From NCBI GenBank assembly GCA_016198905.1, contig JACQHR010000003.1:1-58096 (forward strand): a stretch of 58,096 bases of DNA. The letters run 5' to 3'. Under the pieces are notes generated by a model. That model ran no database searches and was not told the DNA's origin. It worked only from the letters and a program-made list of their open reading frames with translations. Below are positions 6,839 through 7,764 of this stretch, piece by piece. This DNA comes from Candidatus Omnitrophota bacterium. Its GTDB lineage: Bacteria; Omnitrophota; Gorgyraeia; Aquiviventales; Aquiviventaceae. The position numbers were made by a program, and so were the translations under genes. The number at the start of each line of letters is the position of its first letter. Position 1 is the first letter of the stretch.

Positions 6839-7321
6839 ATGTTAGCGAAGCGCATTATCCCCTGTCTCGACGTCAACAAGGGCCGCGTGGTCAAGGGAGT
6901 CAAGTTCGTGAGCCTGCGCGATGCGGGCGATCCGGTGGAGGCGGCCAAGGTGTACAATGACGCTGGCGCCGATGAATTGGTCTTCCTCGACATTACCGCC
7001 AGCCATGAGCAGCGGGGCATCATCTTGGACGTGGTCGCGCGGACCGCGGCGGTCGTGTTCATGCCGCTCACGGTGGGCGGAGGGATTCGCAGCGTGGACG
7101 ACGTTCGCGCGCTGCTCAACGCCGGCGCGGATAAGGTGTCGATCAATACGAGTGCCATCGAGCGGCCTGAGCTCATCAACGAGTCCTCTGATCGATTCGG
7201 CAATCAATGCATCGTTGTGGCGATTGATGCGAAACGGGACGCAAGACTCAAGACACAAGACTCAAGTGGGAAGTCTCCGGTCTCCGGTCTCCGGTCTCCG
7301 GTCCAGAACGTAGTTTGTTAG
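6839..7321 (+). pseudogene. hisF: hisF (cyclase subunit of IGP synthase), N-terminal half only
   Basis: Residues 1-~133 are clean HisF ([48 protein letters not shown]). The frame then enters heptamer repeats ([18 protein letters not shown]) and stops. The second half-barrel is absent. Confidence 0.8.
7242..7304 (+). repeat. Heptamer cassette (CAAGACT/CAAGACA array plus GTCTCCG array) at the hisF/gatA junction
   Basis: CAAGACTCAAGACACAAGACTCAAG (7242-7266), 6-nt spacer, (GTCTCCG)x4 (7273-7304). Confidence 0.9.
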
Positions 7322-7764
7322 AGATGTATCTCCAGACACGCACCGAAGGATTTGGCGCGGAGCCGAAGCGGCGCATTCTGCTGGGCACCTACGTGCTCTC
7401 GCACGGCTACTATGACGCCTATTACCTCAAGGGCATGAAAGTGCGCACGCTCATCAAGCGGGATTTTGATGACGCCTTCAAACGCTGCGATGTCGTGGTG
7501 ATGCCTACGGCGCCCACGCCGGCATTCCGCATCGGCGAAAAACTCGATGATCCGCTGCAGATGTACCTCTCCGACATCTACACGATCTCCGCAAACTTGG
7601 CCGGGATCCCGGCGCTGTCGCTGCCGTGCGGGTTTTCCCGCGATGGGCTGCCCATCGGCATGCAACTGTTGGCTGCCCCCTTTAAAGAAGACGTCCTGTT
7701 GCGCGCGGCCTATGCGTATGAACACGCGACCGAGTGGCATCGTCGCCAGCCGGCGCTGACCTGA
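7315..7764 (+). pseudogene. gatA: gatA (Glu-tRNA(Gln) amidotransferase A subunit), C-terminal ~145 codons only
   Basis: [43 protein letters not shown]...[13 protein letters not shown] matches only the GatA C-terminus. The amidase-signature region is absent. The only start is TTG, and the frame is open back through the repeats to 7228. Confidence 0.8.

Follow-up and report, generated by a model that had tools for sequence, protein, structure and literature searches.

The junction that joins hisF to gatA in the DNA analysed here is probably a false join that makes the contig chimeric, and the "double truncation" of the two genes is, judging by the sequence comparisons below, most likely not a real biological feature. 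The window, i.e., the whole stretch of DNA analysed, is one entire NCBI contig of 58,096 bp, whose HisF, GatA, and GatB are nearest to those of Candidatus Omnitrophota MAGs. The features around the junction, with the basis of each assignment, are listed below.

510..6762, + strand: alaS–hisD–hisB–hisH–hisA, all full length, left-hand locus (collinear with the relatives L082 and L168)
6839..7237, + strand: 5' part of hisF, codons 1–133, ending ...VVAIDAKR and including the Asp of AIDAK (Pfam, identity to relatives)
7238..7266, + strand: first heptamer array, GACGCAA GACTCAA GACACAA GACTCAA G, 29 nt (TRF)
7267..7276, + strand: TGGGAAGTCT, the hisF Trp-Glu-Val codons and the first base of Tyr (identical 10-mer in relatives)
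7273..7303, + strand: second heptamer array, GTCTCCG x4.4, perfect, 31 nt (TRF score 62)
7306..7764, + strand: 3' part of gatA, last ~146–152 residues (Pfam, tblastn)
7764..9203, + strand: gatB, intact, its start overlapping the gatA stop (74% identical to GatB of L089, residues 1–478 of 480)
9200..11803, + strand: ctp protease gene and tsaD, continuation of the right-hand locus (gene order)

Structure of the junction

The ORF at 6839–7321 (160 aa) matches positions 1–140 of 228 of the Pfam domain His_biosynth (E 2e-51), lacks profile positions 141–228, and terminates at TAG 7319–7321, which bears out the preliminary description of a hisF that is intact up to ...VVAIDAKR, runs into heptamer arrays, and stops at 7321. 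Its 5' part is 88% identical to residues 4–133 of L082 HisF and, at the DNA level, 84.5% identical to that of L167, the closest relative. The first array, of the GACTCAA type (GACNCAA), comprises 4.1 units as assembled; its 29 nt are not a multiple of three and fall one heptamer short of the frame, 36 nt or 15 nt being the in-frame lengths. Similar arrays are found at 11388, 17918, and 18428, with exact stretches of 16–17 nt in common with those at 11388 and 17918.

The suggestion that hisF ends at the cassette has to be revised, as the 10-mer TGGGAAGTCT at 7267–7276 spells the W-E-V codons beyond the first array. Counted from 6839, it is in the +2 frame, the one that the gatA part uses, so that at the junction HisF is neither full length nor kept in frame across the array, as an in-frame insertion would leave it. 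The same 10-mer, coding for W-E-V-(Y), directly follows repeat insertions, themselves different, in the hisF genes of L082 and L168, and L167 reads TGGAAGGTCT at this place; the probability of a chance match of 7267–7275 to hisF codons is, by a rough estimate, ~0.005. These nucleotides are most likely hisF's own codons, displaced out of frame by the 29-nt array. If so, the GACNCAA array would be hisF's own loop insertion, and hisF would continue past it and end at GTCT, where the GTCTCCG array starts.

The stretch common to hisF and the second array may be GTCT only, and the breakpoint lies at the 5' edge of the second array or within it. All 31 nt of the array at 7273–7303 recur unchanged in the hemB array at 46549–46579 (100% identity); hence the GTCTCCG array is an exact multi-copy repeat. 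It and the following GTCCAGAACGTAGT lead into LLEMY of gatA. The frame 7228–7764 covers positions 310–445 of 445 of the Pfam domain Amidase (E 1e-36); the gatA part is 80% identical to residues 336–474 of L089 GatA (tblastn) and begins at approximately residue 339 of 485 of Staphylococcus aureus GatA. The Ser-cisSer-Lys catalytic residues of GatA presumably all lie N-terminal to this point. Upstream, the frame is open back to 7228, following TGA at 7225–7227, and at the other end the gatA stop TGA 7762–7764 overlaps the gatB ATG 7764–7766 (TGATG). Thus, a C-terminal GatA remnant, open to 7228 and coupled by TGATG to an intact gatB, is found as originally described, with the exception of TTG being the only start: besides TTG 7315, ATG 7324 is in frame three codons on and is used by the deposited gene call (146 aa). 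Reading the sequence directly, we found no convincing ribosome-binding site upstream of either candidate. Within the 58-kb window, no gatA-5' sequence, no hisF-3' sequence, and no separate gene for the C-terminal half of HisF were found elsewhere.

The GTCTCCG array is most likely a loop insertion of gatA alone, since WEV precedes it and W-x-V is immediately followed by YTHGG in the relatives; in that case, the overlap of the two true sequences would be GTCT, 4 nt, and no more. This speaks against the initial assumption of two near-identical cassettes. The case of hisF having its own GTCTCCG array after WEV was also considered: four units would restore the frame at YTHGG (29 + 28 nt), but there is no precedent in 109 relatives, and we retain it as a minor sub-variant at best.

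Period-7 arrays are a real property of the window DNA. In the window, perfect arrays of 21 nt or more occur eight times vs. never in 100 shuffles, and there is zero to one perfect array for each of the other periods from 5 to 12. The junction cassette (7232–7320) does not form a stable hairpin (-9.5 kcal/mol, z = +0.49), and neither does the hemB cassette (z = 0.03), which pairs two non-complementary arrays in frame in an intact hemB; four other cassettes of the window fold strongly into hairpins (z between -4.6 and -13). The missing A' arm, previously taken as a sign of a breakpoint inside the cassette, is therefore a weak indication and was discarded as a marker, the intact hemB cassette having no such arm either. 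The genes hisH, tsaD, hemB, and that of a class-III aminotransferase all bear cassettes and are full length and in frame.

Some further features of the cassettes were observed in the window. The paired arrays fall into a strong-hairpin class (17918–17990, 18428–18516, 47199–47264, 6712–6831) and a non-complementary class with z ~0 (46504–46582 in hemB, 7238–7303, 11388–11493). Hairpin cassettes at 17890–18020 and 18424–18540 adjoin the leader of prepilin-like ORFs on its upstream side or lie within it, and both are followed by N-methylation motifs (G-FTLVELLV and G-ITLVELMV). Another hairpin cassette lies between hisA and hisF (6700–6838) and consists of AGCACAC x4, a ~60-nt spacer, and a complementary array; it overlaps the hisA 3' end, giving HisA a repeat-coded tail ...STQHTAHSTPPPHPLH, and in L082 hisA and hisF abut with no cassette. 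The segments 7232–7267 in hisF and 11383–11418 in tsaD are 89% identical over 36 nt, and in both genes the GACNCAA array begins right after AAACGG (Lys-Arg codons) and ends ...GACACAAGACTCAAGT. This common context may reflect target-site preference or shared origin.

Gene order, loop insertions, and assembly breaks in relatives

Gene order was compared with that of related contigs. The left-hand part of the window (510–7237) is collinear with L082 (JACQHS010000104) and L168 (JBGGHJ010000044), both having alaS–hisD–hisB–hisH–hisA–hisF, and downstream of hisF both relatives have hisI, trpE, trpG, trpD, trpC, a HhH-GPD gene, radC, ychF, and an OCD-family gene, at least 10 kb in total; tblastn found none of these genes, from hisI to the OCD-family gene, in the other 50 kb of the window. 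On the right-hand side, the order gatA–gatB–ctp–tsaD is the same in L085 and L086, and pdxA–ksgA–gatC lie upstream of gatA in L089, the relative with the 80% identical GatA; pdxA, ksgA, and gatC are absent from the window. Among the Omnitrophota loci fetched, none has hisF within 10 kb of gatA. The join thus evidently connects what are two separate conserved loci in relatives. As the loci are different, this is not a small local collapse, and the junction should be either a false join of two regions or a real loss or rearrangement of a large interval of core genes. Accordingly, the preliminary idea of a collapse at in-frame cassettes stands as to the class of artefact, given that insertions are present in ~60 of 109 HisF and in several GatA relatives and that relatives' contigs fail at these points. 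Its claim of a local loss of only hisF-3', hisIE, gatC, and gatA-5' does not, hisF–hisI–trpEGDC–...–ychF and pdxA–ksgA–gatC–gatA being separate loci. A local collapse losing only hisIE and gatC was rejected on the same synteny.

The flanking genes are well preserved. Alignments are full length for hisD (1–406/406), hisB (1–201/201), hisH (1–214/214), and hisA (1–236/240), and these genes and gatB, also full length, have 68–85% identity to relatives, with the gatA–gatB coupling intact and no decay; the decay of pathway partners that would be expected of pseudogenes arising by reductive evolution is not seen. The tetranucleotide correlation is 0.94 across the join and 0.95 within the right side; GC3 differs little, and the two flanks have their array families in common. 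Both flanks therefore stem from one genome or from closely similar ones, which fits an intragenomic misjoin; an inter-species chimera was rejected on these grounds. Nearly all ORFs of at least 100 aa in the window are on the + strand, and the cumulative GC skew climbs steadily throughout, suggesting a single replichore with a strong gene-strand bias.

Both breakpoints are, by alignment with relatives, insertion hot spots. The HisF loop AIDAK..[YF]THGG has eight residues in ~45 and 9–36 residues in ~60 of 109 relatives; the additional residues are in frame, of low complexity, repeat-coded, and situated right after AIDAKR (e.g., AVSGQWSVVSGPGQSR or VPSSEFRVPSEPPKPETQNQKLW). In 107 of the 109 relatives, W-x-V immediately precedes [YF]THGG, with R-E-V in the other two, and no insertion between these residues and [YF]THGG was seen in any of the 109. 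Similarly, the GatA loop RYDGxxYG..MY has a baseline of 10–11 residues and reaches 41 with insertions (P0242–P0245, P0135), several relatives having up to 30 additional amino acids right before LLEMY. Compared with solved structures, the insertions appear as gaps between AIDAKRVGG and GWEVFTHGG of 4evz for HisF, and at approximately residues 334–339 of S. aureus GatA (2df4) for GatA.

The occurrence of such repeats extends to a third protein: the same loops of HisF (7238–7266; P0003–P0120), GatA (7273–7314; P0135, P0242–P0247), and TsaD (11388–11493; L085, L086) carry repeat-coded in-frame insertions, and the repeat units and lengths vary between Omnitrophota lineages. This suggests either recurrent insertion or rapid turnover at fixed hot spots.

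Assemblies of relatives fail at the same points. The 175-kb contig L081 terminates exactly at AIDAKRR. The MEGAHIT k141 contig L083 is, at positions 1–407, a fold-back chimera with 179-nt inverted arms of 97% identity, a GCTCGAG-type hairpin cassette directly upstream of DLMEMYL of gatA being the centre of the fold. L092 begins inside a cassette at the gatA site, L087, L095, and L103 begin 3–28 nt before the MY codons, and 22 GatA fragments in the protein collection start within 0–3 residues of MY. In P0058, from a 944-bp ENA contig, HisF residues 1–131 are joined to the C-terminal half of HisA at the common VAIDAK motif, which is likely an assembly chimera between the two paralogues in a relative.

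Two observations on gatA concern other positions or other causes. Several GatA entries of Omnitrophota MAGs are marked "partial" (353–388 aa; L085 1–60, P0242–P0244), their contigs ending at approximately GatA residue 100–130, which hints at a possible second assembly-breaking site further upstream in gatA. In a more distant organism (L084, 8974–10432, 687-kb contig), gatA is split into overlapping ORFs of 347 aa and 143 aa, unrelated to cassettes; a frameshift, perhaps due to an indel error in long reads, seems to be the cause. The 143-aa GatA fragment from this 687-kb contig (P0189) was rejected as a precedent for a split gatA, being an ordinary frameshift.

Origin of the junction

The following scheme would account for the observations. 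In the true genome, hisF would carry an in-frame GACNCAA array in the AIDAKR..WEV loop, continue as WEVYTHGG, and be followed by hisI and trpE, the intact sequence reading array–TGGGAAGTCTAC...hisF-3'–hisI; gatA, with gatC upstream, would carry the GTCTCCG array in its RYDGxxYG..LLEMY loop and read pdxA–ksgA–gatC–gatA-5' ending in GTCTCCG repeats, then GTCCAGAACGTAGTTTGTTAGAG. Short multi-copy heptamer arrays of this type break or tangle short-read assemblies, and the hisF-side path, ending just past the first array, would have been linked to the gatA-side path, starting in the GTCTCCG array. The link could have arisen from a slipped or chimeric read that spanned a repeat of low coverage, from a merge across the 4-nt GTCT overlap during scaffolding or gap closing, or, if hisF has a GTCTCCG array too, from a collapse of the two arrays. 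If the array belongs to gatA only, the 4-nt overlap does not allow for a simple k-mer collapse and needs a chimeric molecule, a merging step, or a real junction. Other contigs of this assembly would be expected to contain the intact hisF and gatA.

We favor a chimeric contig because the flanks, non-adjacent in relatives, are different loci, the junction falls at a multi-copy array found elsewhere in the genome, and relatives' assemblies fail at the same points; because two independent anomalies, an array that has slipped by one unit and the connection to a foreign locus, occur within 40 nt; and because hisD, hisB, hisH, hisA, gatB, and the other cassette-bearing genes show no decay. A rearrangement in real DNA, occurring at the arrays via GTCT microhomology or template switching, is in our view rather unlikely. 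It could take the form of a large deletion in a part of the population, or of the novel joint left by a large translocation or tandem duplication with intact hisF and gatA elsewhere; the recombination-prone arrays would then have fused hisF codons 1–136 to the 3' third of gatA via a 4-nt microhomology, an event to which we assign a low probability. Four common nucleotides, if the array is gatA's alone, are typical of illegitimate recombination and impossible by k-mer collapse, the heptamer arrays and hairpins are plausible sites of stalling or slippage, the hisF array itself being one unit off frame, and the undegraded flanking genes would fit a very recent event. However, a deletion would remove hisI, trpEGDC, ychF, gatC, ksgA, pdxA, and everything between them, and such cells should not be maintained at a frequency that an assembly would reflect; for a duplication joint, more than 57 kb would have to be duplicated by way of a 4-nt homology.

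Independent occurrences of the junction were looked for in sequence collections. Every window protein tested is a singleton at 90% identity in a cluster look-up of ~15 billion proteins, and the species has therefore been sampled a single time. The 160-aa and 146-aa junction products are singletons too, the species itself having been sampled once, so that a real junction lacks independent occurrence. Scanning a genome-contig collection with GatB gave distant relatives only (at most 57% identity), and an exact look-up of the gatB products (479 and 489 aa) and of the 160-aa HisF ORF gave no contig on record. The pattern ACAAGACTCAAGTGGGAAGTCT, spanning the array and WEV, had no matches in an exact DNA scan of metagenome contigs, and thus neither the junction nor an intact allele has an independent copy there.

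That the contig is correct and the truncation of hisF and gatA fixed, with paralogues or split halves elsewhere, or in a host-dependent auxotroph with GlnRS and AsnRS, is highly improbable. The deposited record annotates both fragments as proteins, both breakpoints lie in insertion-tolerant loops, HisF half-barrels can reassemble when expressed separately, and host dependence has been suggested for some Omnitrophota. Against this, there is no second piece of hisF or gatA in the 58-kb window, the GatA fragment starts at ~residue 339, presumably C-terminal to all catalytic residues, neither TTG 7315 nor ATG 7324 has a convincing ribosome-binding site, and hisF is frameshifted already before the join. 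A fixed truncation also requires the loss of hisF-3', hisI, the trp genes, gatC, gatA-5', and all between them with pristine partners, and the intact and tightly coupled hisD, hisB, hisH, hisA, and gatB would be unexpected in dead pathways.

Should the junction be an artefact, the 58-kb contig ought to be divided at ~7267–7303, the deposited 160-aa "HisF" and 146-aa "GatA" are fragments of chimeric origin, and metabolic inferences for the organism, such as His auxotrophy or a missing GatCAB, would be mistaken. The problem is systematic, not one-off, as many related Omnitrophota metagenome contigs break or are corrupted at these two loops. If the join is real, the arrays would drive large genome rearrangements and on/off frame switching in housekeeping genes. 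The more interesting biology is in the fixed-loop, in-frame, lineage-specific heptamer arrays in HisF, GatA, and TsaD, which merit a separate study.

Comparison with known systems

Our literature search yielded no description of lineage-specific heptamer arrays at fixed loops of HisF, GatA, and TsaD; only general analogues were found. One of them is simple-sequence-repeat contingency loci with slipped-strand mispairing, e.g., in Haemophilus (PMC2651432), with which the present arrays share an ORF-internal repeat unit of a length not divisible by three, the hisF array as assembled being one unit off frame. Unlike these loci, which are surface or restriction genes, the genes here belong to core metabolism and translation, and one assembled copy number is at hand (4.1 units, out of frame).

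Heptanucleotide tandem repeats of cyanobacteria (STRR) are mainly intergenic. The term STRR is used in PMC2670836. The arrays described here resemble them in having tandem 7-nt units, many copies across the genome, and some inverted pairs; they differ in being situated in coding loops of an Omnitrophota-like genome, and the likeness drawn here is one of form.

Rickettsia palindromic elements and other MITE-like repeats are inserted in frame in protein-coding genes. As in that system (reviewed in PMC10969869), the cassettes are short, in frame, and placed in loops of housekeeping genes, where they form gaps relative to solved structures, and the host proteins remain full length (hisH, tsaD, and hemB here; HisF and GatA in relatives). 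In contrast to one conserved element of 100–150 bp, the repeats here are tandem, lineage-specific heptamers, and only some pairs form hairpins, the junction cassette forming none (z = +0.5).

The junction itself is best compared with repeat-induced misassembly in short-read metagenomes, where tandem repeats lead to assembly errors (PMC6868369). Classical cases are collapses of long repeats, whereas the arrays here are 29–35 nt, composed of 7-nt units, with an overlap of perhaps 4 nt. In common with such misassemblies, an exact multi-copy short repeat lies at the junction, the flanks are non-adjacent in relatives, two essential genes are cut mid-domain with intact neighbours, and these repeats are also where the assemblies of relatives break or fold back.
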